Shown: positions 31,574 through 54,081 of the stretch, piece by piece | How positions within the stretch are numbered: position 1 is the first letter of the stretch | Layout: every line of letters begins with the position of its first letter | Assembly (NCBI GenBank): GCA_964016885.1 | Contig: OZ024757.1 | Span: 21,638,001-21,702,000, forward strand | DNA: 64,000 bases | Direction of reading: 5' to 3' | Origin: Eledone cirrhosa | Taxonomy: Eukaryota | The notes under the pieces: generated by a model | What the model was told of the DNA's origin: nothing | Seen by the model: only the letters and a program-made list of their open reading frames with translations | The model's database searches: none | Position numbers and translations under genes: made by a program

Positions 31574-31631
<58 letters not shown>

Positions 31632-31676
31632 AAGTTAAATAAAAAGTCAAATGTTTAAAATTTAGCTTCGTTTATT

Positions 31677-31731
31677 ACTGCTATATATATTTCAGTGACA
31701 GCCATCTTTGGCTATGACCTCTTCAGGCAGT
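31677..31731 (-). ncRNA. Type I hammerhead ribozyme (left arm of inverted duplication)
   Basis: Reverse complement of 31922-31976 with one substitution. Confidence 0.8.
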
Positions 31732-31921
31732 TTGAATTAGTGTGGTATAGACAAGTATATATGTTGTTGAGGTGTATAATTTTGTCAATACTCTGATATG
31801 CCCGGTTCCTGGTTGGGTTGTTATTTCACTGAGAACCCAACCAGGAACTGGGCATATCAGAGTATTGACAAAATTATGCACCTCAACAACATATGTACTT
31901 GTCTATACCACACTAATTCAA

Positions 31922-31976
31922 ACTGCCTGAAGAGGTCACAGCCAAAGATGGCTGTCACTGAAATATATATAGCAGT
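31922..31976 (+). ncRNA. Type I hammerhead ribozyme
   Basis: actgc CTGAAGA ggtcacagcca-aaga-tggctgtcact GAAA tatata TA gcagt. Confidence 0.85.
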
Positions 31977-32125
31977 AATAAACGAAGCTAAATTTTAAAC
32001 ATTTGACTTTTTATTTAACTTTATTTTACATTACTCCGGAGTAACCAAACCAACCTGCGCACTTCGTCGAGTGCTCCAGCCTGCATACTGAGGTGTTGGT
32101 ATACAACCAACATATACTCAAAATC

Positions 32126-32159
<34 letters not shown>

Positions 32160-32924
32160 ATATGTGTGTGTGTGTTAGGAAGGGCATCCAGCCATAGAAA
32201 ACCTGCCAGACAGTCCTATGCGAGCAAAACAACCACTCTTGCCTCAAGTGGGAAAACTCCCGTCCAAACCCATGCAAGCGGGGAATATGGACGTTAAACG
32301 ATGATGATGACGATGATGATGATATATATATATGTGTATGTGTGTGTGTGTGTTATATATATAAATATGTATGTGTGTGTTTATATATATATATCTATGT
32401 GTGTGTTTATATATATATATGTGTGTGTGGTGTGTGCATTTATTATTATATGTATGTGTGTGTGTTTTTATATATATATATATGTGTGTGTAAGTTTATA
32501 TATTTATATATATGTGAGTTTATATATATATATATATATATGTGTGGGTCTGTGTGTTTATATATATATATATATATGTATGTATGTGTCTGTGTGCATA
32601 TATGTGTGTGTGTGAGTGAGTGTGAGTGGTGGGAGCAGTGGTGGGGATGGGTGGAGAGGAGTTAGGGGTGATGGAGAAGAGAATGATAACAAAATGGAAG
32701 AGGGATGTTGATAATGAACACCCCCTCCCCCCCCATATATATATACACACACACGCACACATATACACACATCATCATCATCATTTTACATCCGCTTTTC
32801 CCTGGACCATAACGCACCAGAGTACTTGATACTATGGGTAGTAGAGTGATATATATATATATATATATACATATATATACATACATACATACATACATAC
32901 ATACATAGATACATACATACACTT

Positions 32925-33371
32925 CGGAAAACAAAATTAACAACAAACGAGGAAGAATATATTGAGACAGATGGCACTAAGGAATACTGGTGTAACCTGA
33001 AAATAAAAACTGCCACCAAATTAAAGCACAACCGGCCTGATATTGTTGTTTGGGACCACACATTGTAAACGTGCTCTGTTGTGAAGATCAGCTGCCCACT
33101 TGATGTAAACGTTGTCAGAAAAATACAGGAGAGGGAGGACATCTACGGACCATTGATGAGGAGTTTACAAATCCAGTATCCAAGATACACATTTAGCTTC
33201 ATACCCATCATTATTGGAGCTACGGGTTATATACCAACCCGCTTGGACCAAAGTATGACTGAACTTGGATTTGCGGACAAAGAGCGCAGCTCCCTAATTC
33301 ATAGTCTACAAATGGCTGCGATAGCTGGCACCTTCAAAATTTGCAAAACATTCTTGCGATTCAAGGGATGA
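32925..33371 (+). pseudogene. R4/Dong-like non-LTR retrotransposon, RLE domain fragment
   Basis: KHNRPDIVVW, ISCPLD, IPIIIGATG motifs; in-frame stop. Confidence 0.75.
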
Positions 33372-33472
33372 CAATTTCTTTTCTTTTACAACCTTGCCAC
33401 CAGGAAGGTGGCCAGTCAAAAAAATATACTCGAAATTAAGAGAAAGAGATAACATACATACATATATATATA

Positions 33473-33845
33473 TCATCATCACCGTTTTACATCCGTTCTT
33501 CCACGCTAGCATGGGTTAGACGGGTTGTCCTGTTGTGGGCAGTGTCCGGTCGGCTGACCATGTCTTGCTCATACGGAAACTGATTCTGGCTTGATTTCTA
33601 CAGCTGGATGCCCTTCCTAACACCAACCAGTGAGTGCTGGGTGCTTTTTTTTTCCGTGGCACCTACACGTCCACTTTGCAGTGGAATGATATGGACCCCA
33701 GTCCTATCATCTCATTTCTACAGCTGAGTAAACTGGAGCAATGTGAAATAAAGTGTCTTACTCAAGGAAACAACACATCACCCGAGAATTGAACTCACAA
33801 CCTTTCGATTGCAAGCCCAATGCTCTAACCACTAAGCCATGTGCC
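33473..33845 (-). mobile_element. tRNA-derived SINE with RTE-type tail
   Basis: Family homology. Confidence 0.8.
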
Positions 33846-34391
33846 TATATATGACAAATAAGTGTACGTTTTGTTTGGTGTTTATTCCTCCAAGTCTTAT
33901 ATTCTAGTTTAGTGTCAGTTAGTTTACAAGGATTCCACAGAGAATCACTAACAAGACATGTGCCAGTAAGGGGTGGGGTGTTCTTGTGGACCCTACAATT
34001 GCTAAAAAATCAGATTCCTGAAACCACTTTAGCAAGATATTCTTAAGAAGTACAAAATAACACTATGACTGATATCACACTAATAATTAAAGTCTTTACA
34101 ATAATTCTAAAATGTCCACTACATGAAACCACACTAGCAAGGCATTCTTGAAAAGTACAAAACAGTACATTGTAATAAAAAATTGAAGTCTTTATTCTAA
34201 TACTGCACGTTTTCACAACAATCTGTCCACTAGAAAAGATACTATAAACATGTAGTAAAATTTCAAAACCTCATTAATATGAAATTCTTACAAATTACAA
34301 AACAACACTAGACATTGGTCAACCTGAACCTGATGCAAAGTGAGAAATAGTGGCCCTGAAACGAGAGTCAAATTGTTGTCAAGTGAACCCA

Positions 34392-34609
34392 TTAACCCTT
34401 TAGCATTCACATTATTCTATAAATGCTATTATATTTTCATGGTAAAGGCTTTACCTCACATAATTATCTCCCATAATATCGAATCTATGAGATTTTGAAA
34501 GTATTTATTTTGAGAACAATACCTTAACATCAGTTTGAGTGACCAGTTACAGCCAGTTTCAACAGAAAGAGGTTGAGAATTCTGGCCGGTTTGAACATTA
34601 AAGGGTTAA
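34392..34609. mobile_element. piggyBac-type MITE (monomer)
   Basis: TTAACCCTTTAG...TAAAGGGTTAA. Confidence 0.75.
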
Positions 34610-34780
34610 AACTTTCACATTCACATTACTCTATATTTACTTTTGTATATTCACAGAAAACGCTTTATCTCACATTATATCGAATCTATGAGATTTTGAT
34701 ATTTATTTTGAGAACAATACCTCAATGTTGGTATGAGCAGCTCCTTATGACCAATTGGAACAGAAAGAGGGGAGAGAGTT

Positions 34781-35470
34781 CATCATCATCGTTTAACGTC
34801 CATGTTCCACGCTTGCATGGGTTTGGACGGGAGTTTTCCCACTTGAGGCAAGAGTGATTGTCTTGCTCGCATAGGACTGTCTGGCTGGTTTTCTACAGTT
34901 GGATGCCCTTCCTAACACCAACCACATTTACAGTGTGGGACTGGGAGGTTTTTACCGTGTTGCCTACACGGTCACATTACAGCGTGGACTGTCTGGTGGG
35001 TTTTCTACAGCTGGATGCCCTTCCTAACACCAACCACATTTACAGTGTGGGACTGGGAGGTTTTTACCGTGTTGCCTACATGGCCACATTACAGCGTGGA
35101 CTGTGTGTTTCTTGTCGTGACACCTACACGATCTCATTTGTTTCGGTCTGGATTTTGTGGCACCAACATAACTTTACATTGAAAGGGGCGGTGTGGATAG
35201 GTTGGGGGTGGTGGGACGGGGTGTATTTTGTTAGAGATGCCTACTGACTGTAGTAGGTTTTACTTTGTATTTAGGTAAGGCGGGTCTTCTCTATTACTGA
35301 GTACCGCCAAAGGTCTCGGTCCAGTGACATTGTCTTGGAGAGGTGTAAGTGTCGTCTTTCATGCGCATCACGTGACCATACCAACGTAGCCTTCTCTCGA
35401 GTAAACAACATCTGATCCCTCTTATTTCTAATTTTTTCCTTAGTTCGTTTATGCTTTGCCGTTCGCGTAT
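34781..35470 (-). mobile_element. RTE LINE family 2, 3' fragment with internal deletion
   Basis: ERRLRWYGHVMRM joined directly to LSKTMSLDRDLWR; 3' UTR homologous to 21349-21886. Confidence 0.75.
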
Positions 35471-35741
35471 ATTAGTTCTGGCCAGATATGGCCGGTTTAA
35501 ATGTTAAAGGGTTAACCACTGAGCTATGCCTATATGTGTGTGTGTGTCAATGCAACAACTGCTAGATGCACTTAGGACAAGCATATGGCTATTGCAACTC
35601 ATAATGCACTATTTTCCAATTTCTAGGAACCTTAATCAGACCAGGTGAGTTTTTTTACCTGGTGGTATTTGTCGTTGTTCTGGTTATATACTATGGCTAC
35701 ATAGACCTGGTCGATATATTCATGGTGTCACCCTTATATAT

Positions 35742-35918
35742 TGTACCCCTGGCAGTGGAGACTTCTGGTGTCCTCGGCCCTAGGGCTACCTCCCTACTCC
35801 CCACCATAGGCGTTGAGCTGGCCAGCCGCAGGTGTGAACCCCGCGAGCTGGAGTGGCTTTTCCAGCGCGTCTCCCTTGCCGTCCTCCATGGGAACGCCTT
35901 CTCCATCCTGTCCGCTGG
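35742..35918 (+). pseudogene. CRE-like RLE domain fragment
   Basis: VPLAVETSGVLGP...EWLFQRVSLAVLHGNA. Confidence 0.75.
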
Positions 35919-36128
35919 GGCTGTGGGGGTGGGGGTGGGGGGCCATCGCGTAACATTCCATATTTAGGTATCTGTGTTCTCACATGTAGATGCACATCCT
36001 TTACCATAGTGTTGTGTCCCTAAACAAAGTTTATTTCCTTTAAGAGTTACAATGTAATTTGTCTGCAGTATGTATACCATGAGATATGATTAAAATGTAG
36101 ACATTGTGATGTTTCACAGACCACACAT

Positions 36129-36850
36129 TTAACCCTTTAATGTTCAAACCGGCCAGAATTCTCTACCTCTTTCTGTTGAAACTGGCTGTAACTGGTCACT
36201 CAAACTGATGTTAAGGTATTGTTCTCAAAATAAATACTTTCAAAATCTGATAGATTCGATATTATGTGAGATAATTATGTGAGGTAAAGCCTTTACCATG
36301 AAAATATAATAGTATATATAGAGTAATGTGAATGGTATGTGAGATAATTATGTGAGGTAAAGCCTTTACCATGAAAATATAATAGTATATATAGAGTAAT
36401 GTAAATGTTATGTGAGGTATTATGTGAGGTAAAGCCTTTACCATGAAAATATAATAGTATATATAGAGTAATGTAAATGTTATGTGAGGTATTATGTGAG
36501 GTAAAGCCTTTACCATCAAAATATAATAGTATATATAGAGTAATGTAAATGTTATGTGAAATATTATGTGAGGTAAAGCCTTTACCATCAAAATATAATA
36601 GTATATATAGAGTAATGTAAATGTTATGTGAAATATTATGTGAGGTAAAGCGTTTACCATCAAAATATAATAGTAGATATAGAGTAATGTAAATGTTATG
36701 TGAGGTATTATGTGAGGTAAAGCCTTTACCATGAAAATATAATAGTATATATAGAGTAATGTGAATGTTATGCGAGATATTATGTGAAGTAAAGCCCTTA
36801 CTGAGAAAATACAATAGTATATATAGAGTAATGTGAATGCTAAAGGGTTA
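36129..36850. mobile_element. piggyBac-type MITE with ~8x 72-bp internal array
   Basis: TTAACCC...GGGTTAA termini; opposite orientation to the 34392 copy. Confidence 0.75.
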
Positions 36851-37522
36851 AGAGACTGAAATCCTTACTAATGTATCTTTATGTTAACTCTGGTCAAGAT
36901 TCCCACCATTGAATATTTTGTGACTGCCTCAAATAATTTGATTGTTATCTGCCATATTGCAGCTGTTTCTCTCACTGGTGGTATTAAACCCCCTATAATT
37001 GAACACATATCTCTGTGTGTACTTCTCTCTAGATGCTGATTTATAAAGAGCCCCGAATCTATTCCTTGAGCTCATTAAATTATAGGGTAGGGGATGATTG
37101 TGGGTCTTTAACTCCACTTTTTAATTTTATATAAATATATATATATATATCATCATCATCATCGTTTAACGTCTATCTTCCACGCTAGCATGGGTTTAGA
37201 CGGGAATCGTCCCACTTGAGGCAAGATTGGTCGTCTCGCTCGGAGAAGACTGTCTGGCAGGTTTTCTACGGCTGGATGCCCTTCCTAACACCAACGACGT
37301 TTACAGTATGGACTGGGAGGTTTTTACTGTGTTACTTACACGGCATATATATATATATATATATATTGGTAAAAGGAAAAGAAAATGCTGACAAATTGTT
37401 CCCAGTGAAAAATAGTTTAATTAGGAATAAGTAAAAATTAGTAATAAGTATTGGTTAGTATTCAGTTTTGGTTTTAAGTTTTTACCGGTTGCGCATTTCT
37501 AATGCTTTTCAAAAATAATTTT

Positions 37523-37586
37523 GAGAGAGAGCGTCCGTGATGTTTGCTCTAATCAGATTAGAGCAAACATCACGGGCGCTCTCTCT
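37523..37586. repeat. Near-perfect palindrome at the end of a (TA)n-inserted element
   Basis: agagagagcgtccgtgatgtttgctctaatc-a-gattagagcaaacatcacgggcgctctctct; element homologous to 21890-22055. Confidence 0.8.
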
Positions 37587-37647
37587 TTACCAATATATTA
37601 CAACTCGTGTGTTACACCTCTATTTTTTTATATATATATTATATATA

Positions 37648-37679
<32 letters not shown>

Positions 37680-37876
37680 CCAGATGTAGCTGATGGCTGA
37701 GAGAAAAGAATAGTTATGACCCTGCGAAAAGCTGATGAAAGACCAGAGTAACAGGACTCATTATTTAGCTTTAATAAAATGAATATCTCTATATATATAT
37801 GTGTGTGTTTATATACAATGTATATATTTTATATAGGGCCACCATATATGTATATACGGGTGTATTTGTATTAATT

Positions 37877-37948
<72 letters not shown>

Positions 37949-38883
37949 ATATATAAAATGTGCATATTTTATATAGGGCCAGCATATATGTATATACGGG
38001 TGTATTTGTATTATATATACATACTTACACACATGCATACATATATGTCGTTCAAAATTTAAATAATGCAAACAACAGTAAATTTAATAATTTTGTGGTA
38101 TTCTGCTCGTTGCGTCAGTGCAACACAATTGCTGAATGTATAAAGTAATACTGCAGCGAGAAATAACGGAAAAGGAGGCCCCTCCTATCCTACCAGTCTC
38201 CCTACCGCCTCAGAACAACAACAAACAACAACAAACTCTATGTTACCTTTTCTTTGCAGCTTTAATTAATCATTCTACGAGCTGTTATTAAATCTTTTTC
38301 GCGCATGCATACAAAATATATAAATAAAAATACACAAATAACAAACAAAAACAGTGCACACAAGTGCATACACAGCAGTTTATATAGTTTTCCCCATACC
38401 TGATGCACATATATGCACCACCAATATTTAATATATAGTTGCAAGTGCATATATATATATGTGCATGTTTAAAAAATATAAATAAAAATAAAAGGTGCAC
38501 ATATGCGCATTCACAGAGGTTCATATAGTTTTGTACATATGGTATCTGATGCACATATATGCACCACCAATATTCAATATTCAGTTGGAAGCATATATAA
38601 ACATGATAAGCCTGCAATACATTGCATATACACACACGTGTAATATATAGCATGTCAAATAAAGATACTTGTATACATACATGATTATAGTAATGTACAA
38701 CCACTATACAAACACTCAGACACACATACACACACATATACACATACACACACACATATACACATGCACACATGTATATATATAAATATATATACATTCA
38801 CATACATGTGTATATATATAAATATATACACATTCACATACATGTGTATATATATAAATATATACACATGCACACACACACAC

Positions 38884-39224
38884 ATCATCATCAACATCAT
38901 CATTTTACGTCCGCTTTTCCCTGCTTGCAAGGGTGGGACGGGAACTGATTCTGGCTTGATTTCTACAGCTGGATGCCCTTCCTAACACCAACCTCATTTA
39001 CAGTGTGGGCTGGGTGCTTTTTTGCCGTGGCACCTACACGTCTGCTTTACAGTGGAATGATAGGGACCCCAGTCCCTATCATCTCATTTCTACAGCTGAG
39101 TAAACTGGAGCAATGTGAAATAAAGTGTCTTGCTCAAGGAAACAACACATCACCCGGTCTGAGAATTGAACTCACAACCTTTCGATTGCAAGGCCAATGC
39201 TCTAACCACTAAGCCATGTGCCTC
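38884..39224 (-). mobile_element. tRNA-derived SINE with RTE-type tail, full length
   Basis: Family homology. Confidence 0.85.
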
Positions 39225-40939
39225 CATATATATATAAATATATACACATAAATATGTATCATCATCATCATCGTTTTACGCCCGTTCTCCCATGCTAACA
39301 TGGGTTAGACGGGTTGTCCTGTTGTGGGCAGTGTCAAGTCGGCTGACCTTGTCTTGCTCATACAGGAACCGACACTGGCTTGATTTCTACAGCTGGATGT
39401 CCTTGCTAACACCAACCTCATTTACAGTGAGTGCTGGGTGCTTTTTTGCTGTGGCACCTCCACGATCACTTTGCAGTGGAATGATAGGGACCCCAGTCCC
39501 ATCATCTCATTTCTACAGCTGGATGCCCTTCCTAACACCATATCATCATCATCCTCATCATCATTGTTTTTAGGTCTATTTTTCTACACTAGCATGGGTT
39601 GGATGGGTCCTACTCAGCAGAGCATCTCTCACTCACCACGTTCCGCCATCATCTCCTCCCCCCGAGTCTCAGTGGTTTGAGGTCAGCTCATATGTATGTA
39701 TAAATATATATATATACATATATACACATGTACTTGCAGGAACATGTAGTCCTTCACATATGATACAGCAAACCAGCCAGCCAACCCATCATCAGCATCA
39801 TCATTAACCACACCATTATCATCATCACCACCACCACCACCACCATCATCACCACCACCATCACAATCATCATCAACACCACCACCACCACCACCATCAT
39901 CAGCACCATCATCATCATCATCATCAGCATCATCACCACCACTACCATCATCATCATCGTTTTGCTGGCTTGTGTTGCCTTCCTCCCCTTCCAAACACAT
40001 ACACACATGCACCCCCCCCCACACACACATTTATATGAGTGTTTACATCTATACACATATACAATTACTTGTATATATAAAACACACATTAAACTCATTC
40101 ACACATTTTGGCCTAAGCACAAAAACATATACATACATAAATTGCATATATATATATATACACTACACACAATAACACACACATACATACATGAATACAT
40201 ACATACACACACACACACATATATAGAAACACATATAGACACACATACACACACACACATACAGACAAACACCCATACAGACCTACATACATAAACACAC
40301 AGACATACATACACACACACACATACATACACATACAGACACACATACATACATACATACATACATACATACATACACATATGTACATATACACATATAT
40401 ATGTATACACACTAGAGCAATGTAGTTGAAATATATAGTAGAGTGTTTGTGCTTGAGGGCTGATTACTGAAATATTGCCCCATCTAAAGGTTTGTTTAAC
40501 TGGGCCAAACTTTAACATTATTCTCACCAATTCTCTACGGAACCAATCATTTTCATTTAATGACTTTATTTCACATTTTTACACATTTTTATTTTATGAG
40601 AAAAATATATTTTTCTTATTTAGTTTCTTATTTTTATTTTATTTTACAATATATTTTTGTTGTTCTGCATCATGTCAGCCTCATATTTTAGCCTAAAGAC
40701 TCGTATTTATTGGTGTACAGTGATTTAAAGTGAGTAGAACAGCCAGTAAAATGTTGGAGGAGTGGATAAGAGAGAGTCATTAGGTTCTAGTGGTATTTTA
40801 CATGGTTTCAGAGAGGTGGATTGGTAGAATTGGTAGAATTGGTAGAGCATTGATGTCATTGCATGTGGTATTTGTTGTGGATCTTTACATTGTAAGTTCA
40901 AATCCTGTTGAGGCTATCTTTACCTTCCATCCTTCCAAG

Positions 40940-41316
40940 GTCCTGGCCCTCTCAGACACGCCCTCTGTAGTACATACAACATCCCTCACTAGCTATGCTG
41001 TTGACACAAAGGTAGCACAGGCAATCAGAAACCCGGCTGATACTGCCCTTTTACAACAAGATCTGGATGCCATATACAAATGGGCTGAGGACAACAACAT
41101 GCAGTTTAATGCTGGACAATTTCAAGCCTTACAATACCAACCGGCAAACACAAATGCAGTACAACGCAGCTACACTGGACCAGGAGGGATCGAAATCCCC
41201 ATGTCGAAATCAACACGAGACCTGGCAATAGACATGAGCGATGATGCATCTTTTTCTTCACGCATCATGAAGGTGGCAACAATGTGCAGACAACTCGCTG
41301 GCTGGATCTTGAGGCT
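40940..41316 (+). pseudogene. CR1/L2-group reverse transcriptase fragment
   Basis: YAVDTK (from YADD), LQQDLDAIYKWAEDNNMQFN, RDL motifs. Confidence 0.75.
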
Positions 41317-41439
41317 GGACTTTAAGGTCGATAAAACAAATTAACAGTTGTGCCTAAATTAAAAACAAAATATAATTTACATTCTTTTTAGTGATCTGCC
41401 ATGAGTTTCATTGAAAGTTTGAAGCCATTGCTTGGCTCT

Positions 41440-41656
41440 TGTTGGCCAGGTTTCCTGCCATGTTGAATCTGCAGAGAAACTGCTTCTCTGGTGACCAGAT
41501 GCAAATCATCGAATAGAACATCGAGACATAACCAGCAGGACTCTGTTGGTGAGGGACACTGGCCTCGCTGGATTGGGGTCTGCTCTCTGTGATGAGAGAT
41601 CTGGAAGTCTGGAACAAGCACTTTGTGAATGATTCCCCTTTGATGGAGGGATGACT
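41440..41656 (+). pseudogene. Decayed RTE-X-like LINE C-terminus
   Basis: LLLW.P ... TLLVRDTGL ... VMRD..VW across frameshifts. Confidence 0.45.
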
Positions 41657-41789
41657 TAAGAAGAAGAAGAAAGATGGTGGATTCGGAAAATTTGGTAGAG
41701 TATCAGATAAAATGTCATTGCAGCATTTGTTGTGGCTCTTTACATTCTGCCAACTTTATCTTTCATCCTTTTGAGGTTGATCATCGCCT

Positions 41790-42415
41790 TCATCACCACC
41801 ACATCCATCACCACCACCTCCATCACCTTCACATCCATCACCACCACCTCCATCACCTTCACATCCATCACTACCACCTCCATCACCTCCACATCCATCA
41901 CTACCACCTCCATCACCACCACCTCCATCACCTTCACATCCATCACTACCACCTCCATCACCTTCACATCCATCACCACCACCTCCATCACCACCACCTC
42001 CATCACCACCACCTCCATCACTACCACCTCCATCACCTTCACATCCATCACCTTCACATCCATCACCACCACCTCCATCACCACCACCTCCATCACCACC
42101 ACATCCATCACCTTCACATCCATCACCACCACCTCCATCACCACCACATCCATCACCTTCACATCCATCACCACCACCTCCATCACCTTCACATCCATCA
42201 CCACCACCTCCATCACCTTCACCTCCACCACCACCACATCCATCACCATCACATCCACCACCACCACCTCCATCACCTTCACATCCATCACCACCACCTC
42301 CATCACCACCACCTCCATCACCACCACCTCCATCACCACCACCTCCATCACCATCACCACCACCACCATTGTTCCCATCATCATCATGACCACCCACCAC
42401 CATCACCATCACCAT
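41790..42415. repeat. 15-bp periodic CAT/CAC repeat
   Basis: catcaccaccacctc / catcaccttcacatc units. Confidence 0.9.
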
Positions 42416-42899
42416 GACTCTGGAGGTTCTGGTGCTGGTGGTGATAAAAGAGAACCAGTCAAGTACTGGAGATGACTCTTTATATCAAATCATTCTATTA
42501 GATGTTCTAGTGACCTTGCCAATTTATTGCCTCATTAAATATTTATAGAAACAGTTACTGAAAGAATTTGTGACAGAATGGCACCAAATATTTATCTAAT
42601 AATTGTTTCTGCTTTTGGCACAAGGCCAGCAATTACCCCCAGTGCGTTACTGGTACTTTATTTTATCGACCCCCGTAAAGATGAAAGGCAAAGTTAACCC
42701 AGTTAACCCAGGAACTCAGTCTGTAAAGGGACATAACTGTGCTGCAAAGCATGGTGTCCGACCCTCTACCGATTCTGCCAATCCACCGGATTTATCTAAG
42801 AATGCTTGTTAGCCCTTTTGTTGCCATATTTCCTGTCATCGGGACAGTGTTTCAATTAGTTACAGAATGATTTGGAGGGGTTCACAACATTTCTTCCAA

Positions 42900-43983
42900 A
42901 AAAGAAGAGAGAAGGAGTGAGAGAGATAGAGAAGTGAGAAAGAGATAGAGAAGAAGTGAGAAAGAGATAGAGAAGAAGTGAGAAAGAGATAGAGAAGTGA
43001 GAAAGAGATAGAGAGGAAGGGAGAAAGAGGAAGGGAGAGATAGAGAGGAAGGGAGAGAGATAGAGAAGAAGTGAGAAAGAGATAGAGAGGAAGTGAGAAA
43101 GAGATAGAGAGGAAGGGAGAAAGAAATAGAGAGGAAGGGAGAGAGATAGAGAAGAAGTGAGAAAGAGATAGAGAGGAAGGGAGAGAGATAGAGAGGAAGG
43201 GAGAGAGATAGAGAAGAAGTGAGAAAGAGATAGAGAGGAAGCAAGAGAGATAGAGAAGAAGTGAGAAAGAGATAGAGAAGTGAGAAAGAGATAGAGAGAA
43301 ATGGAGAGAGATAGAGAAGAAGTGAGAAAGAGATAGAGAAGAAGGAAGAGATAGATAGGAATGGAGAGAGGTAGAGAAGAAGTGAGAAAGAGATAAAGAG
43401 GAAGGGAGAGAGATAGATAGGAATGGAGAGAGATAGAGAAGAAGTGAGAAAGAGATAGAGAGGAAGCAAGAGAGATAGAGAAGAAGTGAGAAAGAGATAG
43501 AGAAGTGAGAAAGAGATAGAGAGAAATGGAGAGAGATAGAGAAGAAGTGAGAAAGAGATAGAGAGGAAGGAAGAGATAGATAGGAATGGAGAGAGGTAGA
43601 GAAGAAGTGAGAAAGAGATAAAGAGGAAGGGAGAGAGATAGATAGGAATGGAGAGAGATAGAGAAGTGAGAAAGAGATAGAGAGGAATGGAGAGAGATGG
43701 AGAAGAAGTGAGAAAGAGATAGAGAGGAAGGGAGAAAGAGATAGAGAGGAATGGAGAAAGAGATAGAGAGGAATGAAGAAAGAGATAGAGAGGAAGGGAG
43801 AGAGATAGAGAGGAAGGGAGAGAGATAGAGAGGAAGGGAGAGAGATAGAGAGGAATGGAGAAAGAGATAGAGAGGAATGGAGAAAGAGATAGAGAAGTGA
43901 GAAAGGGATATAGAGGAAGGGAGAGAGATAGAGAAGAAGTGAGAAAGGGGGAGAGAGGAAGGGAGATAGAGATAGAGGAAGAA
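42900..43983. repeat. Polypurine GA-rich minisatellite
   Basis: gagatagagaagaagtgagaaa variants. Confidence 0.9.
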
Positions 43984-44537
43984 TCAACCCTTGCTATCCA
44001 CTGAGAAAAGATAAAAGGCTGGGATTTGAACTCAGAGCGAGAAACCCAGAATGACTACTGCAAAGCATTGTATTCGACATTCTAATGACTTTGTCAATTT
44101 GCCACCTCATTAAATATATATTGTATGGTACGGTTCTGTAGCTCTTGATAGAGCCCTAGGGGTGTCATTGTGGCATACAGCATTTCTTGGGCATTTTAAA
44201 CCTGTTGGAACCCATCTTTCTTCAGCTCTGAACACAGCAGATTTCCTCCAGAGAAGGATAGAAAGCGAGAAAGAGATATAGAGGAAGAGTTGGCCCCAGT
44301 ACTAGACTGATACTTTTTTTTTTTATCGACCTTGACAAAAGGCAAAAATTGACCTTGGCAGGTTTTAAACTGAGAGAGAGCCAAGGGCTGAAACAAACAC
44401 TGCAAAGGATTCTATCTGACCTTCTCACAACTCTGCCAATACTGAAAGACTTTGAGACAGAGTTTCACCAAATATTTATAAAATAATAAAATAATAAACA
44501 TTGTTTCCTTGCAAATGATCAAGAATGAAGCATGTGT

Positions 44538-44822
44538 TCAAGTCTTCAAATTATTCCTATGAATTATAAAATAACTGTTTCTACTTTTGGCACAAGGCCA
44601 GCAATTACCCAGTACATTACTGGTACTTTATTTTATCGACCCCGTAAGGATGAAAGGTAAAGTTAACCTCGGCGGGATTTGAACTCACTGAGGTTAACTT
44701 TACCTTTCATCCTTACGGGGTCGATAAAATAAAGTACCAGTAATGTACTGGGTAATTGCTGGCCTTGTGCCAAAAGTAGAAACAATTATTTTATAATTCA
44801 TAGGAATAATTTGAAGACTTGA
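44538..44822. repeat. ~133-bp near-perfect inverted duplication of a SINE 3' half plus flank
   Basis: Arms 44538-44670 and 44690-44822, 19-nt spacer. Confidence 0.9.
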
Positions 44823-45349
44823 AGTCTTCAAATTATTCCTATGAATTCTAAAACAATGTCTGTTATTCCTTTAGTTACCATACTTCTAATGAATTATTCC
44901 ATTGAAGAATTTGGAAGGATTTACTGAGATTATATTTTTTGTTTAAGTGATATTTGTAAAATAATATTACAAAAGGTAAAAATAAAAGCTGCAAAGTTCT
45001 AACTTAAACAGAAATGTCCTGTACCTCATGAAACCATATTAGCAACACATTCCTGAAAAGTACAAACCAGTACTATGACTACATCACATTAAAAAGGTAA
45101 AGTCTTTACGTTAAAACAGCAAATTTTCATAACAATCTGACAACTAGTAAAGATACTCTAAATATTTGAATTAACAAACCTGCTTCTAAATATTCTAGAT
45201 ATCTACCAAATCATTACAAGACGTTAACAGTTAAATAGGAATATTTGATAGGAGTATTGAATAACAATAATAAAATAGCAAAACAAGAAAAGAAAAGAAA
45301 GGAAAATGGGGGAAGGGCAAGGATTGTTAAGCAACAAAGAAAGGGGAGA

Positions 45350-45620
45350 GGGTGACAGACTCTACACCTGAATCAGAGTGGTGTTTAGGCTGCACCCTGT
45401 AGACTAAATAATAGCAAATATATTGCCCTGAACAATGGCCAGTGACACCCTCACAAACAGCCACTCCACCTTGTGGGAATCTTTTAGAAAGTGTGATTTT
45501 GTTTCCTAGAACCAGAGGCAGTTTTGTATGGATGAGTTGCTATGAAAGGGGTTAAACATAGTGTCAGTAGAAGTAGAATAACTTGAAACAAAGTCATTAG
45601 GGGTTGGGAGAAATCCTGAG
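45350..45620 (-). pseudogene. CRE-like RLE domain fragment
   Basis: Minus strand KVEWLFVRVSLAIVQGN. Confidence 0.6.
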
Positions 45621-46284
45621 ACATGGAATGATATGACAGTTAAATAAGTAAATATTTTCTTTTATTCCTTTTTTCCTCTCTTTCCCTTTGGAATGAATCT
45701 CTTGACAAACAAGCCTGAACTTTGTGAGGGAGAGAACTGTAGCTTTAGAATTGGATCTGTGAGGGTGGAGTGGAAGGGGGAAGGGTTATGGAGGGAAAGA
45801 AACACTTTCCTCTGACATGAACTATAAGGTTTATTATAGGGAACTGATAAGGTAACTTGATATGTTAGGGAATAAGAAGAAAGAAAAAAATAAAGAAAAT
45901 GGCAGGGGAAAGAAAGAGAGAGAGATAGGAGAGTAGAAGAATGTGTTTATTCTGTCAATGGGGGACTTGAAACCAATGAATGTACAAACAGACAGAGCTG
46001 CTAAACTGACCAGAAAGATTTAGGACCAGAATACAAGCTAGAATAATATTCAGTACTAGAAATTGGTTTCTAAAGTTCATGAATACATGAATATTTAATT
46101 AACACTTAATGTCCTGTACCACATGAAACCACATTAAAAGGACATCTTTGAAAAGAACAAAACAGCACTATCACTGTATCATATTAACAAAGTGTTTACT
46201 GTAAATTTTCACAATGATCTGCACACAAGTAAACTTATAAACATTGGAATTTAAAAAAAACAACACATTAACAAAACATTTTTG

Positions 46285-46928
46285 AAAAGTACAAAACAGC
46301 TCTATGACTGCATCACATTAAAAGTACAAAACACTGACTGCATCACATTAAAAGTACAAAACAGCTCTATGACTGCATCACATTAAAAGTACAAAACAGC
46401 TCTATGACTGCATCACATTAAAAGTACAAAACACTGACTGCATCACATTAAAAGTACAAAACAGCTCTATGACTGCATCACATTAAAAGTACAAAACACT
46501 CACTGCATCACATTAAAAGTACAAAACAGCTCTATGACTGCATCACATTAAAAGTACAAAACAGCTCTATGACTGCATCACATTAAAAGTACAAAACACT
46601 GACTGCATCACATTAAAAGTACAAAACAGCTCTATGACTGCATCACATTAAAAGTACAAAACAGCTCGATGACTGCATCACATTAAAAGTACAAAACAGC
46701 TCTATGACTGCATCACATTAAAAGTACAAAACAGCTCTATGACTGCATCACATTAAAAGTACAAAACAGCTCGATGACTGCATTACATTAAAAGTACAAA
46801 ACAGCTCTATGACTGCATCACATTAAAAGTACAAAACAGCTCTATGACTGCATCACATTAAAAGTACAAAACAGCTCTATGACTGCATCACATTAAAAGT
46901 ACAAAACTATGACTGCATCACATTAAAA
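46285..46928. repeat. 35/30-bp minisatellite, about 19 copies
   Basis: Unit aaagtacaaaacagctctatgactgcatcacatta. Confidence 0.95.
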
Positions 46929-47022
46929 ATTAAAGTCTTTAGAGACTTTAGCTTACAGCGAATTTTCTTAACAATCTGTTCACTAGGACAGATACTCTAA
47001 ACATTTGATAAGGATTTTAGCA

Positions 47023-47099
47023 GAAAATGTCTAAAAACAGATTTAATTCAAATGTTTAGAGTCTAAACATTTGAATTAAATCTGTTTTTAGACATTTTC
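47023..47099. repeat. Perfect palindrome with 38-bp arms
   Basis: gaaaatgtc...tgtttaga g tctaaaca...gacattttc. Confidence 0.9.
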
Positions 47100-48135
47100 C
47101 TTATAAAATGTTTAAAGTTAACCTTTTTGACACGGAATTGCTCAAGTTCTACATTACAATGTTATTTATTTTATAGCTTATGTATTTATTTTAAAACATT
47201 CCATCATATTAAGAGTGGTGTGATCCTGCACACAGATGCTATGAAATAGTTTATAAAATAGGATCAAGACCCTTAGAGATGGAAAAAGAAGTTACTATTG
47301 GCCACTACGAGGAATTGAACCTCATAACTCCCAGATTCTGGCTAGATGCTTTAAAGCATTAAGCCAAAGGACTGTGACAATTCTTACCATCTTAAACAAG
47401 ATTGCTGAATCACAGCTTTAAATGTAAATAAACATTGTATATATGTAGCTGATCTCTCAGACTTTTATGAAAGCCTGAAGGGTTTTTTATTAAATCCATC
47501 CAATTTTTAAATTTTATTTGTGATCCAAACATGAGCTTAATAAGAAGAACATTTGTTATATTAGTAAATCTCCCTGAATTCATTATTATTTAAAAACTTA
47601 TTAAAATCATAGGCAGTGTCTTTCATTAGAAACATCGTACTGAAAGGGTTTTTAGTTATGTTCTAAGCACCATCTTGATAACAAGAAGGTTATATTACTA
47701 AATCTCTCCAACTTATTGATTATTTAAAAAAAAATGATCTCAAACCATGTTTTTCATATGAAATATGGTAATGAAAGAGTTAAGGATTTATAGCATGTTA
47801 TAGAGATGTCTGAAGAATTTGAATGGTTGTTATCAATGAAGCAGATTTTTCAGCCAGAAAGTCACCTTTTAACCAATTAGATTATTGTCAGATATTCCAC
47901 AACTGATTTCCATAGCTTGCAAATTGGGCTGAATTTTAATATCTCATTTTATTATAAATTAGATTTAAAACCTGACTTCATCAAAAATACAGTCACACAC
48001 ACACAAAACACATGGATAAACGTAGGTATGTACATACACATATATGCACATGCATACATATATACATACACACGCATACATACACATCCATCCATAGATA
48101 TATACATTGATACTCACATATGTACATACATATAT

Positions 48136-48470
48136 CATCATCATCATCATTTCATTTTACGTTCGCTTTTTCCCTGCTTGCAAGGGTGGGACGGAAACTG
48201 ATGCTGGCTTGATTTCTACAGCTGGATGCCCTTCCAACCTCATTTACAGTGAGTGCTGGGTGCTTTTTTGCCATGGCACCTCTACGACCACTTTACAGTG
48301 GAATGATATGGACCCCAGTCCCTATCATCTCATTTTTACAGCTGAGTAAACTGGAGCAATGTGAAATAAAGTGTCTTGCTCAAGGAAACAACACATCACC
48401 CGGTCTGAGAATTGAACTCACAACCTTTCGATTGCAAGGCCAATGCTCTAACCACTAAGCCATGTGCCTC
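48136..48470 (-). mobile_element. tRNA-derived SINE with RTE-type tail
   Basis: Family homology; flanking duplication atacatacacatatatgcacatgcatacata. Confidence 0.85.
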
Positions 48471-48824
48471 CATATACATACACATATATGCACATGCATA
48501 CATATATACATACACACGTGCCCACACACATACAGAAGATACATACATATATACATACAAACGGCCAAACAAATATATTTCAATATTTTTTTATTTTTCC
48601 CAGAGAACACATTTTTCTTTATTTTTTGTGAAAATATATTTAAAAATATTCCATTCTCATAAAATTCTAGAAATTTATAACATTTTATTGTATCAAACAA
48701 GAGGGGAAAATATGAATTAGAATTAATAATTTTAAAATGTAGTTAGATTGTGTGAAATATAATATGGTGAATGAGAAGAAAAGAGAATTAAAGAGAACAC
48801 ACACATATATACATATATACACAT

Positions 48825-48866
<42 letters not shown>

Positions 48867-48891
48867 CTGTGTATATATATATATAACTGTG

Positions 48892-48981
<90 letters not shown>

Positions 48982-48983
48982 AC

Positions 48984-49029
<46 letters not shown>

Positions 49030-49524
49030 GTTATATAAATAACCAAGCGTTAAATTAATATATTTCTTCATTGTACCATGTTGTTTGCTTTGTTTCTGTT
49101 TACTTTTTGCATATATATATATAGGGAGAGAGAGAGAGAGAGAGAGTGAGAGGAGAGAGTGCAAGAATGAAAGAGAGGAGATATGTGCTTATATACAGAG
49201 AGAGAGGGTGAGAGAAAGAGCAAAACAGCCTGCAAGTCATATTGAGAGGACTGTTCAAGTATGTCATAGACATAACAACCTTCCTGGTGTTGATAAAGAC
49301 ACCCAGTACACTCTGTAAAGTTGTGGGTGATGGGAAAGACATCCAACTATAGAAAACATGCTAAACAAAGTGTCAGAACGATGAAAGACAAAGATAACCT
49401 CGAGATGATTGGAATTCAGAGTATAGAGAAGCAAAGAAACAAATACCACAAGGTATTTTATCTGGCTTACTACCTGACAATTCACTACCTTAGTTATATA
49501 CATGCACAAATACACACACAAAGA

Positions 49525-49592
<68 letters not shown>

Positions 49593-49654
49593 GATAAACT
49601 TGAACCGTTAAGATCTCCTTCCTGGATATGTCAATATTTAGGAAACAAACTTTG

Positions 49655-49717
49655 TATTTTATCTGATGAGGGCGTACCAAAGTTTTGGTACCCTTGAAAT
49701 ATATATATAATAGAATA
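49655..49717 (+). ncRNA. Type I hammerhead ribozyme
   Basis: tattttat CTGATGA gggcgtaccaaa-gt-tttggtaccctt GAAA tatatata TA atagaata. Confidence 0.8.
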
Positions 49718-49793
49718 AATATGGTTTTATATATATAATAGAATAAATATGGTTTTATAAATATAGTTTCCATTTATTTAATATCATTGATTG

Positions 49794-49838
<45 letters not shown>

Positions 49839-49891
49839 GAATAAATATGGTTTTATAAATATAGTTTCCATTTATTTAATATCATTGATTG

Positions 49892-49925
<34 letters not shown>

Positions 49926-49927
<2 letters not shown>

Positions 49928-50119
49928 GGAACCAGTAAGACCCCGACGGCTGAGCTCAAGCCGTTTCGACGGCTAATTCTGGACTGAATTAGCCGTCGAA
50001 ACGGCTTGAGCTCAGCCGTCGGGGTCTTACTGGTTCCTATTACCCACTCTACTACCCCAAGTATTGAGTACTTTGGTGCGCTATGGTCCACCTGGTTCCT
50101 TACCACATTTCCTTCGTTA
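49926..50119 (+). mobile_element. Third copy of half-hammerhead fold-back element
   Basis: Perfect palindrome centred on gacggctaattc-tggact-gaattagccgtc, then GAAA cggcttgagctcagccg TC gggg and a tail to ccttcgt(ta)n. Confidence 0.75.
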
Positions 50120-50806
50120 TATATATATATATATATATATATTGAGTATAACATGTTATCCATGTGCAACCAGCAGTATTCTTCTCACCCATATTTTCAT
50201 ATATTTACCCAAACTGCAATTCTGTGTTTCTCTCTTTCTCTCTACTGACCTCTTCCTCGCACTCCCACTCACTCAGTCCCTGTTTCTCCCCTTCTTTCTT
50301 CCTCCCGTTCGCTGGGAAAACGGTTTTCATTCTTTCTAACACCGGATTCACTAGCGAAAGGTCTGTTTTCTGACTCGCTCATATATTCACACAGCTTATG
50401 CTGAAAGAATAACTATGTTGCTTGTGTTTATTTCCATCTTCGGTTAGCTTCCCCCTGTGTTGTTTACTTGTCTCACTCGCTTTACGCGTTTCTATTGTCC
50501 TAATAACTTATTTTAGTTATTATCACTCCAATGTGAGGTATATGATTTTTAATGCGATGAAATACCCATGATCGTTTGGTAAATCACTGATGAGGGACTC
50601 ATTTTATAACATGTTATCCATGTGCAACCAGCAGTATTCTTCTCACCCATATTTTCATATATTGAGTATATGTTGGTTGTTTACCGATACCTCAGTATGC
50701 AGATTGAAGCACTCGACGAAGTACGCAGGTTGGTTTGGTTACTCCGGAGTAATGTAAAATAAGTAAGTCAAACATGTAAAATTTGGCTTCGTCTATTATA
50801 AATTCT

Positions 50807-50859
50807 CTGCTATATACATTTCGGTGACAGCTATTAATGGCTGTGACCTCTTCAGGCAG
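50807..50859 (-). ncRNA. Type I hammerhead ribozyme
   Basis: Minus strand ctgc CTGAAGA ggtcacagcca-ttaa-tagctgtcacc GAAA tgtata TA gcag. Confidence 0.8.
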
Positions 50860-51126
50860 TCCGAATTAATGTGGAAAGGACAGGTAAACATGTTGTTGAA
50901 GTGTGTTCCACTCTGTCAATACATCGATATGTCCAGCTCCTGGGTGTGTAGTTAGTCCTCCGAGGAACTGGAATCAATATGATTCTGGAATATTGAACTG
51001 GAATCATATTGATTTCAGTTCCTCGGAGGACTAACTACACACCCAGGAGCTGGACATATCGATGTATTGACAGAGTGCAACACATTTCAACAACATGTTT
51101 ACCTGTCCTTTCCACATTAATTTGTA

Positions 51127-51179
51127 CTGCCTGAAGAGGTCACAGCCAATACTAGCAGTCACTGAAATATATATAGCAG
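51127..51179 (+). ncRNA. Type I hammerhead ribozyme (right arm)
   Basis: ctgc CTGAAGA ggtcacagc...gcagtcact GAAA tatata TA gcag. Confidence 0.75.
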
Positions 51180-51230
51180 AGAATTTATAATAAACGAAGC
51201 CAAATTTTATATGTTTGACTTACTTATTTT

Positions 51231-51276
<46 letters not shown>

Positions 51277-51527
51277 CAATACATATCACTATCATTTGAT
51301 GATGCATAAAAATGCTGAAACTGGTAATAGACAATTATTAAATATATAAATAGATAAATAAATGGCATTGTTAATTAATAAATAAATCAACTAATACCTT
51401 AACACTTCACACAAAGTAAAACATTTCGTTTTAATCATTTCCTAACCCAGAAAAAAGAGAGAAAGAAATAAAAATGGAAAAAAATATATTTTTCTTCCTA
51501 ATAATTGTCTCTTATCTCCCTGTTTTC

Positions 51528-51561
<34 letters not shown>

Positions 51562-51615
51562 CAGCTCCCGTCCCAACCTTGCAAGCAGGGAAAAACGGAC
51601 GTAAAATGATGATGA

Positions 51616-51654
<39 letters not shown>

Positions 51655-51676
51655 ATAAATAACACAATATAATTAT

Positions 51677-51744
51677 TCCATTACCAAAGGTTTCAGGAAA
51701 CTAGACGATCCTAACAGAACCGTCCAGTACGCTCATCAGATGAA
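51677..51744 (-). ncRNA. Type I hammerhead ribozyme
   Basis: Minus strand ttcat CTGATGA gcgt-actggacggttc-tgtta-ggatcgtctagt-ttcct GAAA cctttgg TA atgga. Confidence 0.75.
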
Positions 51745-51821
51745 CATGTAATTAAATAGCTCTGTACTATACATGGAGCACTCTTCTTTCCTCTACCTTT
51801 TCTACGGAAATACTTAACACA

Positions 51822-51863
<42 letters not shown>

Positions 51864-51963
51864 CACACACACACATGCGTACACACATGCGTACACACAT
51901 GCGTACACACACATGCGTACACACATGCGTACACACATGCGTACACACACATGCGTACACACA

Positions 51964-52167
51964 CAGAGTGTATCAAGAAGAATCACCCAGTTTTATTTAC
52001 AATGGTTATAAATACTCAATATGTAAATAACTATTAAAATTTATAAAAATTATGAAAAACATAAAACTTTATATTCAACCATGTATTGTACAAGTTACAA
52101 CATAATTATATAGTCATTTGTTTAAAAAATATAGACTTTTGAAATATAGCCTTTTTGATAGACCCTG
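51964..52167. mobile_element. Tc1/mariner-type MITE
   Basis: Imperfect TIRs cagagtgtatcaagaag / ctttttgatagaccctg followed by TA. Confidence 0.5.
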
Positions 52168-52734
52168 TATATTATATAAGATCTTGCAAAGAAAAATAGG
52201 TCCCCTTTAATCCTCTTTCCCACCCCTGTAATTTAATCTTTTATCATATAATTCTTTTGATTTTGCTCCCTAGTTTTCAAGATGGAGACAAAACATTATT
52301 TCTGAAGGATATGCTGTCTATATTATATGTTATTATAAACATGTTATATACCTTACACTTTTGTTTTTTCTTTGTGTTTTTGTCTTTGGGGTAAGTCTCT
52401 CATTTTTGATAGTGTGTTTTATTTTTATATCTGCCTTAAATCTTTCCATATTTTGGAGAAAGTATATTTAGGAGCTTTGAGATAGAAAATTTCTTTGTAT
52501 AGCAGACAGCTATACACATATGGAAGCACTTGTTAGTTGTACAGATGGAGACAGAATGGTGCTTCTAAGGAATGGTATGTCTTCCATATCTGTTATTATA
52601 ACATCTTAGATTGAATAATGGCTGAGTAAGTCTATGTTCCAATGTATTTATCTAGACTTAATGGACTGCACAATCCAGAAGAAATTTCTGGATAAATTCT
52701 TCTATATTTTGCAGAAAGTATATTTCAGATGGTG

Positions 52735-53083
52735 GAGGTGCATCACCTAGTGGTAAGGATGTTGGACTTATGGTCATAATGTCGTGGGTTTGATTCCTGG
52801 ACTGGGGTCTGTGTTGTGTTCTTGAGCAAAACACTTCATTTCATATTACCCTAGTACACTCAGCTGCAAATGAGTACCAACAATAGCTTGGGGTTTAACC
52901 CTGTGATGGACTGGTGTCCTGTCCAGGAGGGAGTATTGTACTATCAGTCCCTTCATGCCATGAAAACTGGAATCAGTTCCCATATGAGCAAGACAAGGTC
53001 AGCCGACCAGACACTGCCTACAACAGGACAACCCGTCTAACCCATGCTAGCGCGGAAGAATGGACGTAAAATGATGATGATGA
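52735..53083 (+). mobile_element. tRNA-derived SINE, older subfamily
   Basis: A/B-box head, cttgagcaaaacactt body, (atg)n tail. Confidence 0.7.
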
Positions 53084-53087
53084 TATA

Positions 53088-53644
53088 GTATCCAGAATAA
53101 GGACAGTTTGGAAGAAGTTTAGGGAGCTGCTTCCTCTGTTGACAAAGAAGGATTTCTCCCTGCGTACGAAAGGCCGGTTTATATGATGCCTGTGTGAGAT
53201 GTGCGATACTGCATGGTAGTGAGACATGGGCAGCAGTTTCAGAGGATATGCGACGGCTGGAGAGAAATGAAGCAAGCATCCTCCGTTGGATGTGCAATGT
53301 CAAAGTGCGTGAACGACCAAGCATAGACAAGTTGAGAGAGAAACTGGATATAAGAGGGATAAGTTGTGGTGTGCGAGAGAGGAGACTGCGATGGTATGGG
53401 AATGTGATGTGCATGGAGGATGACCGATGGGTAAAGAAGTGTCAAGAAATCCCAGTTGAAGGAAGATGCAGTAAAGGAAGACCATGAAAACCATGGGTGG
53501 AGTTGGTGAGAGCTGACCTCAGATTGCTGAAGCTCACAGAGGAGATGTTGAAGGACCGTGACAAGTGGAGAGATGCTGTTCTGAATAGGACCTGTCCCAC
53601 CCTTGCAAGCAGGGAAAAGCGGACGTAATATGATGATGATGATG
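53088..53644 (+). pseudogene. RTE-clade LINE 3' fragment (family 1)
   Basis: LHGSETW...ERRLRWYGNV...GRP*KPW...DRDKWR; (atg)n tail. Confidence 0.85.
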
Positions 53645-53732
53645 ATATATATATATATATATATATATTTAAAGGTTAAACAAGGTTCAATGAATAAATC
53701 AAAGAATAAAGTTTTACAATAGATTATCATCT

Positions 53733-53798
53733 TATTTTATCTGATGAGGACGTACTGTTGAAATAGCTCAGTACCTCTGAAATATGTATAATAAAATA
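53733..53798 (+). ncRNA. Type I hammerhead ribozyme
   Basis: tattttat CTGATGA ggacgtactg-(11 nt)-cagtacctct GAAA tatgta TA ataaaata; perfect 8-bp helix I. Confidence 0.85.
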
Positions 53799-53839
53799 TA
53801 CTTGATCACACGAATGTCTATTTTTGTTAATATTTTGAA

Positions 53840-53911
<72 letters not shown>

Positions 53912-54081
53912 GTTTGGTTGAGCACACTTCTCTGAGTGGCTTTGGGCTGCCCTTTCTAGCAGTTCGTCCCTCAGAGGCCAGTGGTTCACTGCCCTTAAAC
54001 ACGCTGTGACTTCTCTCTCCCACGTGTAGCTGGACAGTCAATTTTATAATTCTCTTAGTGTTGTCTGAAATGTATAGCCTT

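Follow-up and report, generated by a model that had tools for sequence, protein, structure and literature searches.

A conserved pyrimidine mismatch in helix II of putative Penelope-type hammerhead motifs of Eledone cirrhosa

The stretch of DNA considered here (the window) comprises 64,000 nucleotides of the Eledone cirrhosa genome (assembly GCA_964016885.1, contig OZ024757.1, positions 21,638,001 to 21,702,000 of the forward strand). It is AT-rich (GC 0.357), dense in microsatellites and harbors nine type I hammerhead ribozyme motifs, in each of which a cytosine at position 10.4 of helix II faces an unpaired pyrimidine at position 11.4, while the remainder of the helix is paired and covaries. 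This mismatch has probably been kept by selection of some kind. The motifs likely belong to truncated Penelope-like elements (PLEs) and escape the Rfam models.

Hammerhead motifs in the window

The window was scanned with a type I hammerhead descriptor that requires the core, helix I and helix II and ignores position 4 of helix II. Ten credible motifs were obtained with scores of 7 to 14, the next-best score being 3; four local shuffles of the window gave two matches at 7 to 8 and none above 8. Nine of the ten are unpaired at position 4 (3358+, 19653-, 21029+, 31726-, 31927+, 49663+, 50855-, 51131+ and 53741+, named by core position and strand). The tenth (25545-, score 7) has a C-G pair at this position and a short loop. 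A pattern consisting of the core and the palindrome matched seven times in the window and not once in 100 shuffles, and a search of the window with model R1 found no full copy besides the nine and a half-copy at 20964-21027. Rfam covariance models gave no hammerhead match at the gathering threshold in the whole window; with loose thresholds, none was obtained at E ≤ 5 in 49500-54300, nor at E ≤ 10 around 31927, 53741 and 25545.

The initial annotation, made from the sequence alone, had quoted seven helix II ends, all of which are present in the sequence. The sites are real, with two corrections of position: the copy given as 50807 is a minus-strand copy whose core begins at 50855, and 19647 on the minus strand is the last base of a core that starts at 19653. 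The copies and the repeats that accompany them are as follows.

31922-31976, plus strand: family A type I hammerhead; helix I ACTGC/GCAGT, core 31927-31933, helix II 31934-31959, C10.4 at 31937 facing C11.4 at 31956, GAAA, palindromic TATATA, predicted cut after 31971
31677-31731, minus strand: family A hammerhead in the inverted arm of the 31927 insertion; C10.4 at 31716, C11.4 at 31697
31622-32031: inverted repeat by a (TA)n tract, arms 31622-31819 and 31834-32031 (198 nt, 97% identity); putative Penelope-type inverted stump
32022-32123, plus strand: family A 3' tail, common to 50660-50760 (minus strand), with (TA)n next to it
50807-50859, minus strand: family A hammerhead; core from 50855, G10.1-C11.1, C10.4 at 50845, C11.4 at 50826
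51127-51179, plus strand: family A hammerhead in the opposite arm of the 50855 insertion; C10.4 at 51141, C11.4 at 51160, G-U closing pair
50753-51233: inverted repeat, arms 50753-50985 and 51001-51233 (233 nt, 95% identity)
49655-49717, plus strand: lineage B1 hammerhead (GGGC/CCTT); C 49673 facing C 49692, 8-bp A-U helix I, (TA)n tracts on both sides, a slipped register also being possible
53733-53798, plus strand: lineage B2 hammerhead (GGAC/CTCT); C 53751 facing C 53775, helix I TATTTTAT/ATAAAATA, in an insert of about 170 nt between (TA)n tracts
3350-3420, plus strand: lineage B3 hammerhead (GAAC/TTTT); C 3368 facing U 3397, 16-bp helix II, palindromic TGCGCA, flanked by (TA)n tracts
21021-21091, plus strand: second B3 copy with a decayed core (CTGATGG); C 21039 facing U 21068
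20929-21002: inverted arm beside the second B3 copy, containing a third half-copy with an identical 3' strand
19578-19661, minus strand: lineage D hammerhead (GATC/CATT); core from 19653, C 19643 facing C 19604, helices I and III degraded
25505-25560, minus strand: contrasting canonical-like hammerhead; 4-bp helix II (C10.4-G11.4), 7-nt loop, inside a 347-nt direct-repeat unit

The hammerhead core (C3 U4 G5 A6 N7 G8 A9 / G12 A13 A14 A15 / U16 H17) is intact in eight of the nine copies, 21029+ carrying the single change to CTGATGG. Helix I is open-ended, with 91% of its cells paired and two-sided changes at all five pairs. Helix III is a perfect palindrome in the form of TATATA (three copies), TATATATA or TGCGCA, is one change away from a palindrome in TGTATA, TATGTA and TGCACA, and is degraded in the 19653 copy. 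In none of the nine does an extra nucleotide separate position 9 from 10.1. Helix II is 8 to 16 bp long with an internal mismatch, and the arrangement of an apical loop 2 on a 4-bp helix is absent.

Position 4 of helix II

The layout of helix II is the same in all copies: three base pairs are followed by C10.4 facing C (seven copies) or U (two copies), after which pairing resumes. This had been described initially for seven examples and extends to two more (31726 minus and 21029 plus). In an alignment of the nine copies over eight helix II positions (A2, with a shuffle control that ignores kinship), position 4 is unpaired in every copy, whereas 62 of the 63 cells at the other seven positions hold a pair and six of these seven have changed on both sides; slid registers all score much lower than the in-register alignment. 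The compensatory changes around a fixed pyrimidine mismatch that the initial annotation had proposed are therefore present. C10.4 is invariant in the nine copies, and pairs at helix II positions 2, 3, 5, 6 and 8 turned over between lineages. Three other hammerhead-like motifs of the window (25545-, 54089+ and 51739-) are without the mismatch pattern.

Family A in sequencing reads

Reads from four runs (X1, X4, X6 and X7) of the eight listed were aligned to 50700-50930 at 80% likeness. No RNA run containing the stretch was listed, which is neutral as evidence. The depth amounted to 1687 contigs in X1, 17 in X4 (which carries a second organism label) and 5159 and 4327 restriction-site-associated DNA (RAD) reads in X6 and X7, respectively; 40 of 86 variant rows were examined. 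X1 and X4 contain no place with a G>C change of at least 4%, and the three G>T places of X1 all lie off the mismatch, C>U at either C still being possible. Neither mismatch position is among the variant rows listed for X6 and X7. C-C is thus the state of family A at position 4, neither C having turned into a pairing base in X1 and X4. The check for a Watson-Crick pair in the family consensus, which the initial annotation had called for, thus came out in favor of the mismatch for family A (X1 and X4). These data also bear on the idea that the mismatch arose by decay of dead copies after insertion. Several copies are visibly decayed (21029, 19653 and 51131), yet one and the same position is affected in five of six lineages, for which the chance is about 1e-5 if mismatches occur at 5% over eight positions, and C-C as the majority state in reads refutes this explanation for family A; overall it is highly improbable.

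The pair closing helix II is G-U in seven copies, G-C in one and A-U in one, for which the initial annotation had considered decay of the CpG formed with GAAA. The CpG observed/expected ratio of the window is 0.38, and differences between inverted arms affect CpG bases at 5 of 18 sites compared to 15 of 467 other sites (Fisher p 4e-4), an excess which shows that CpG decay operates in the window; between the 50855/51131 arms, the difference at 11.1 is exactly C/T. C11.1>U was found in 1854 of 3465 reads of X6 (53.5%), in 1513 of 2771 reads of X7 (54.6%) and in 9.6% of the X1 depth, C11.1 being retained in about 46% of the family A RAD reads and about 90% of the X1 depth. In contrast, G12>A, which affects the other strand of this CpG, stays under 4% in X1 and does not occur among the variant rows listed for X6 and X7, in which only one base (50862) of the other seven CpGs appears. 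This strand asymmetry points to a G-U pair that is likely inherited from source elements and tolerated. Decay, which is active and accounts for the origin of U11.1, is thus part of the answer: it likely creates U11.1, source elements tolerate the G-U pair and pass it on, and G12A copies fail to propagate. The spread of a harmless C11.1>U, as opposed to a lethal G12>A, indirectly suggests that an intact ribozyme core is of importance for the source elements.

Lineages and selection on the mismatch

The nine copies fall into five lineages, namely A, B1 (49663), B2 (53741), B3 and D (19653). Family A consists of 31927, 31726, 50855 and 51131, arranged as two inverted-arm pairs (31726/31927 and 50855/51131), and B3 of 3358 and 21029. 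Flanking sequences are alignable within families (0 of 200 shuffles reached the score in all four comparisons); across lineages, the best of 38 comparisons had 1 of 200 shuffles reaching its score. Beyond this, the ribozymes have several traits in common, including the lack of an extra nucleotide after CUGANGA, a palindromic U...A helix III and the G-U closing pair, and B1 to B3 have an almost identical 8-bp helix I. These traits make a single ancestor followed by deep divergence likelier than convergence, and a single origin of the mismatch in the common ancestor with subsequent retention appears likelier as well. The "unrelated families" of the initial annotation are accordingly unrelated only outside the ribozyme, where no similarity is found; three of its seven examples belong to one family, and five lineages are represented rather than seven. 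Judged from their sequences, the motifs probably constitute one lineage-specific structural variant of Penelope-type hammerheads and not a convergent trait of unrelated families.

C10.4 is retained in all five lineages and in 25545-, and in five copies (four lineages) it lies within a CpG. Under saturation, C10.4 would be retained in four further lineages with a chance of about 0.001, and C11.4 with one of about 0.02, both being rough values calculated without a tree. Selection of some kind, as proposed initially for the RNA structure, is likely because C10.4 was kept while the flanks became unalignable between lineages. A frozen accident, by which an ancestral mismatch was merely tolerated and retained in five lineages by descent and chance, would agree with the kinship suggested by the common traits and with the small sample; moreover, the only two mismatches counted by eye among 56 published PLE hammerheads are both located at position 4, so that this site may be permissive. 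It is nevertheless quite unlikely, since the neighboring pairs needed double changes and turned over at five positions, the flanks are saturated and an unconstrained C should have disappeared from AT-biased, CpG-decaying DNA. A coding constraint on C10.4 through the ATG in CTGATGA was considered and rejected: the reading frames are short, end at different lengths, and in family A this ATG is missing.

Penelope-like 3' ends as putative carriers

Inverted partial arms of 74 to 233 nt with 95-97% identity occur at three insertions, and a (TA)5+ tract is found within 250 nt downstream of seven of nine cores compared to 24% of random places, the copies being partly non-independent. In X6, 1450 of 1890 reads end 12 nt upstream of the core (50867), with mixed flanks and one mate orientation, which suggests a preferred 5' boundary of family A at this place. 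An alternative interpretation of this pile, namely that the ribozyme is better conserved than its flank, was dropped, as the mixed loose ends equally fit 5' truncation points. Insertions of endonuclease-bearing PLEs are described as strongly 5'-truncated, with an adjacent inverted truncated copy and a microsatellite bias including (TA)n targets (Craig et al. 2021, PMC8557442), and truncated PLEs with opposite-strand hammerhead pairs are known (PMC4209133). Because inverted arms, (TA)n tracts and read ends match this architecture, the carriers are likely the 3' ends of truncated PLEs. Compared to the described insertions (PMC8557442), the stumps of the window agree in truncation, inverted partner and (TA)n and differ in that no coding remnant of a reverse transcriptase (RT) or GIY-YIG endonuclease was found among 150 of 158 candidate open reading frames. 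An assignment to a Neptune-like clade would be a guess. Tandem repeat units were not found around the A, B and D copies, a repeat (347 nt) being present at 25545 alone.

Given the palindromic helix III, these motifs may cleave as dimers, as described for the hammerhead class with this feature (PMC4209133; PMC6765202). AUA is a natural but slower hammerhead cleavage triplet (PMC1636495).

Palindromic inserts without a hammerhead core are located in or near (TA)n tracts at 31400-31570, 49928-50040 (with relatives near 26530-27100) and 19743-19821. They are possibly further PLE-type stumps or miniature inverted-repeat transposable elements.

Possible role of the mismatch

In canonical hammerheads, helix I docks via an opened loop 2 at the upper end of a helix II of 4 bp, and docking at openings of helix II is represented by internal loop 2 of CChMVd(-), the minus-strand hammerhead from chrysanthemum chlorotic mottle viroid, and by a C:A opposition in Schistosoma (PMC2632901). 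Long helices II that are interrupted occur in Penelope of D. virilis, which has a bulge (PMC4209133), and in chrysovirus hammerheads, which have a mid-helix bulge (PMC13725137). The mismatch of the window copies sits one pair below the canonical docking height on the same arm. Since it lies near this height and other long-helix hammerheads carry a mid-helix bulge, the favored reading, tentative and given somewhat less than an even chance, is that of an open hinge or docking spot which would let the long hairpin fit the active ribozyme fold. Purifying selection in source elements would then hold C-C or C-U at 10.4-11.4. In the most speculative step, the mismatch would cap the 3-bp lower helix near the height at which the canonical loop 2 meets helix I and so stand in for the opening of loop 2. 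A stronger version, that a 1x1 C-C internal loop takes over the switching role of loop 2 in a distinct, very-high-copy hammerhead subtype, either by docking helix I or by binding a Penelope protein, is doubtful. If true, such a switch would be a new way of stabilizing the hammerhead fold that neither Rfam nor the published minimal descriptor would see.

Several observations weigh against this interpretation or the data behind it. On the helix I side, no conserved partner was found, the 3' strand being GCAG(U/A) in A but AUAAAAUA in B, and nothing at the mismatch corresponds to the U-A motif through which canonical docking occurs. For 49663, ViennaRNA favors a register that has slipped and leaves a C bulged, with a probability of 0 for the lower helix in register. 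X6 and X7 each have two G>C places of at least 4% outside the rows listed, which may include position 4; the share of U11.1 in X1 is far from that in the RAD runs, whose sampling is uneven. The five lineages come from a single window without a tree, so that all counts are inflated by common descent. With regard to the carriers, Pfam revealed no RT or GIY-YIG open reading frame (ORF) in 150 of 158 candidate ORFs of the window, although stumps need not carry one. In one active PLE, mutations of catalytic hammerhead residues left insertion in vitro unaffected (PMC11167929). Finally, when position 4 was paired in silico, the lower helix became more probable in each of the six mismatch copies folded (native values 0 to 0.9, 0.5 to 1.0 once paired).

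The latter result means that the mismatch is a cost at the level of secondary structure, which fits an attenuator equally well. As such, the mismatch would weaken the lower three base pairs and keep single copies off until dimerization or chaperoning; the G-U closing pair weakens the lower helix further, and a palindromic helix III implies dimer control (PMC4209133). For an attenuator any mismatch would do, whereas all nine copies have C-C or C-U and C10.4 survives in CpG context, and we regard it as rather unlikely.

The mismatch may also serve as a recognition site for the RT-endonuclease of the element or for a host factor involved in ribozyme folding or RNA loading, an explanation which, from the sequences, seems unlikely. 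The identity of the base (C) is kept and not mere mispairing, no RNA partner is conserved in helix I, and the Anolis PAc hammerhead cleaved only with PLE protein added (PMC11167929). However, the bases beside the mismatch differ freely between lineages, so that such a site would have to be very small, and the Pfam search among the ORFs mentioned above gave no PLE ORF.

Comparison with known hammerheads

Comparisons with the literature refer to the available text of the cited works. Like the hammerheads of metazoan PLEs (Cervera and de la Pena 2014, PMC4209133), the window copies have type I topology, a CUGANGA/GAAA/UH core, a palindromic helix III and a long helix II, and occur as dispersed single copies and close opposite-strand pairs. 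G10.1-U11.1 is also found in 8 of the 56 published PLE motifs (supplement of PMC4209133, counted by eye). In contrast to the PLE consensus, the window copies are without the extra nucleotide 9/10.1, and G-U instead of G-C closes helix II in the majority. Their helix II of 8-16 bp has a fixed C-C or C-U at position 4, whereas C-C occurs in none of the 56 motifs; two other mismatches, U-U in Clonorchis 2 and C-A in S. purpuratus 1, are both at position 4 (both counts by eye). None of the 56 stems from a cephalopod. The published descriptor (stem II of 3-7 bp, loop of 3-10 nt, gaaannuh; PMC4209133) would not match the window motifs.

Canonical metazoan type I hammerheads and those of retrozymes lacking long terminal repeats (non-LTR retrozymes) (PMC7229834; bioRxiv 10.64898/2026.07.22.740005) resemble the window copies in having no additional nucleotide behind the core and in the short palindromic helix III. 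C is present at 10.4 in eight of nine canonical motifs of Fig. S1 of PMC4209133, a count from machine-extracted figure text and therefore uncertain. In canonical motifs, helix II has 4 bp including C10.4-G11.4, its apical loop 2 docks on a loop of helix I, and the motifs occur in short tandem repeats; the C-C motifs have no docking apical loop 2 and are not in tandem, and 25545 fits the canonical class better. The internal loop 2 of CChMVd(-) (PMC2632901) is similar as an interruption inside helix II and is used for docking there. The chrysovirus helix has a bulged A (PMC13725137), Penelope of D. virilis a bulge (PMC4209133) and Amex2 of axolotl a U-U at the base of helix II (PMC7229834). As far as these sources describe them, none of the four has a symmetric 1x1 C-C or C-U at 10.4-11.4 kept across families.

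No description of a C-C or pyrimidine mismatch in stem II was found in the literature compared; Lunse et al. 2017, the supplement of PMC7229834 (coral and mussel families), most of Dataset S1 of Perreault 2011 (PMC3088659) and Repbase/Dfam lay outside the comparison and could overturn this. For hammerheads of cephalopods, the available literature offered nothing beyond a report that giant squid has 235 Rfam hammerheads (PMC6962438). None of the loci from public collections (34 and 6 in viral contigs, 43 in metagenome contigs and 2 in prokaryote genomes) was a convincing relative combining a good helix I with a good helix II. The two loci ranked best by model R1 (L059 and L062) were rejected for a poor helix I, L059 in addition lying in apparently bacterial coding DNA, and L018 for a poor helix II despite a good helix I. 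L018 (viral collection, 293-373) has a hammerhead core, a palindromic TGCATA and a helix I paired at eight of eight positions, and could be a real type I hammerhead in its own right.

Other elements in the window

The canonical-like type I hammerhead with its core at 25545 (25174-25680, minus strand) has a 7-nt loop ending in UA, a long looped helix I and a palindromic TGCA. Its 347-nt direct-repeat unit is accompanied by another copy near 25200 from which the core is deleted, and by an inverted piece of 53 nt, the whole resembling a partial dimer of a retrozyme. A possible minimal hammerhead at 14654 (minus strand) has a U3-A8 core (TTGAAAA ... GAAA TA TC), similar to a core variant of Schistosoma, and a plausible helix I, its score being within shuffle noise. 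Two further motifs are hammerhead-like: 51739 (minus strand), in which helix III reads CC-TTT-GG and the lower part of helix II is irregular, and 54089 (plus strand) with an A-C closing opposition and a long loop 3. A 42-bp tandem array at 24253-25171 (CTGAGGA ... GAAA) mimics the core and was rejected as a hammerhead, as it has no consistent helix II. The ORF fragments 33069-33371, 35605-35967, 40784-41344 and 53143-53487, which have no Pfam match, resemble C-termini of non-LTR retrotransposons. A tRNA-like match (36 bits) at 61297-61354 (minus strand) is probably the head of a short interspersed element.

Significance

Penelope-type hammerheads cut poorly in vitro, lack the known loop-loop contact and in one case depend on the protein of the element. 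A fixed, base-specific mismatch within a covarying helix offers a single-nucleotide handle on the question of why PLE hammerheads are conserved. Since nine motifs in 64 kb escape both Rfam and the published minimal descriptor, hammerhead counts in such genomes may be far too low, as extrapolated from this one window.

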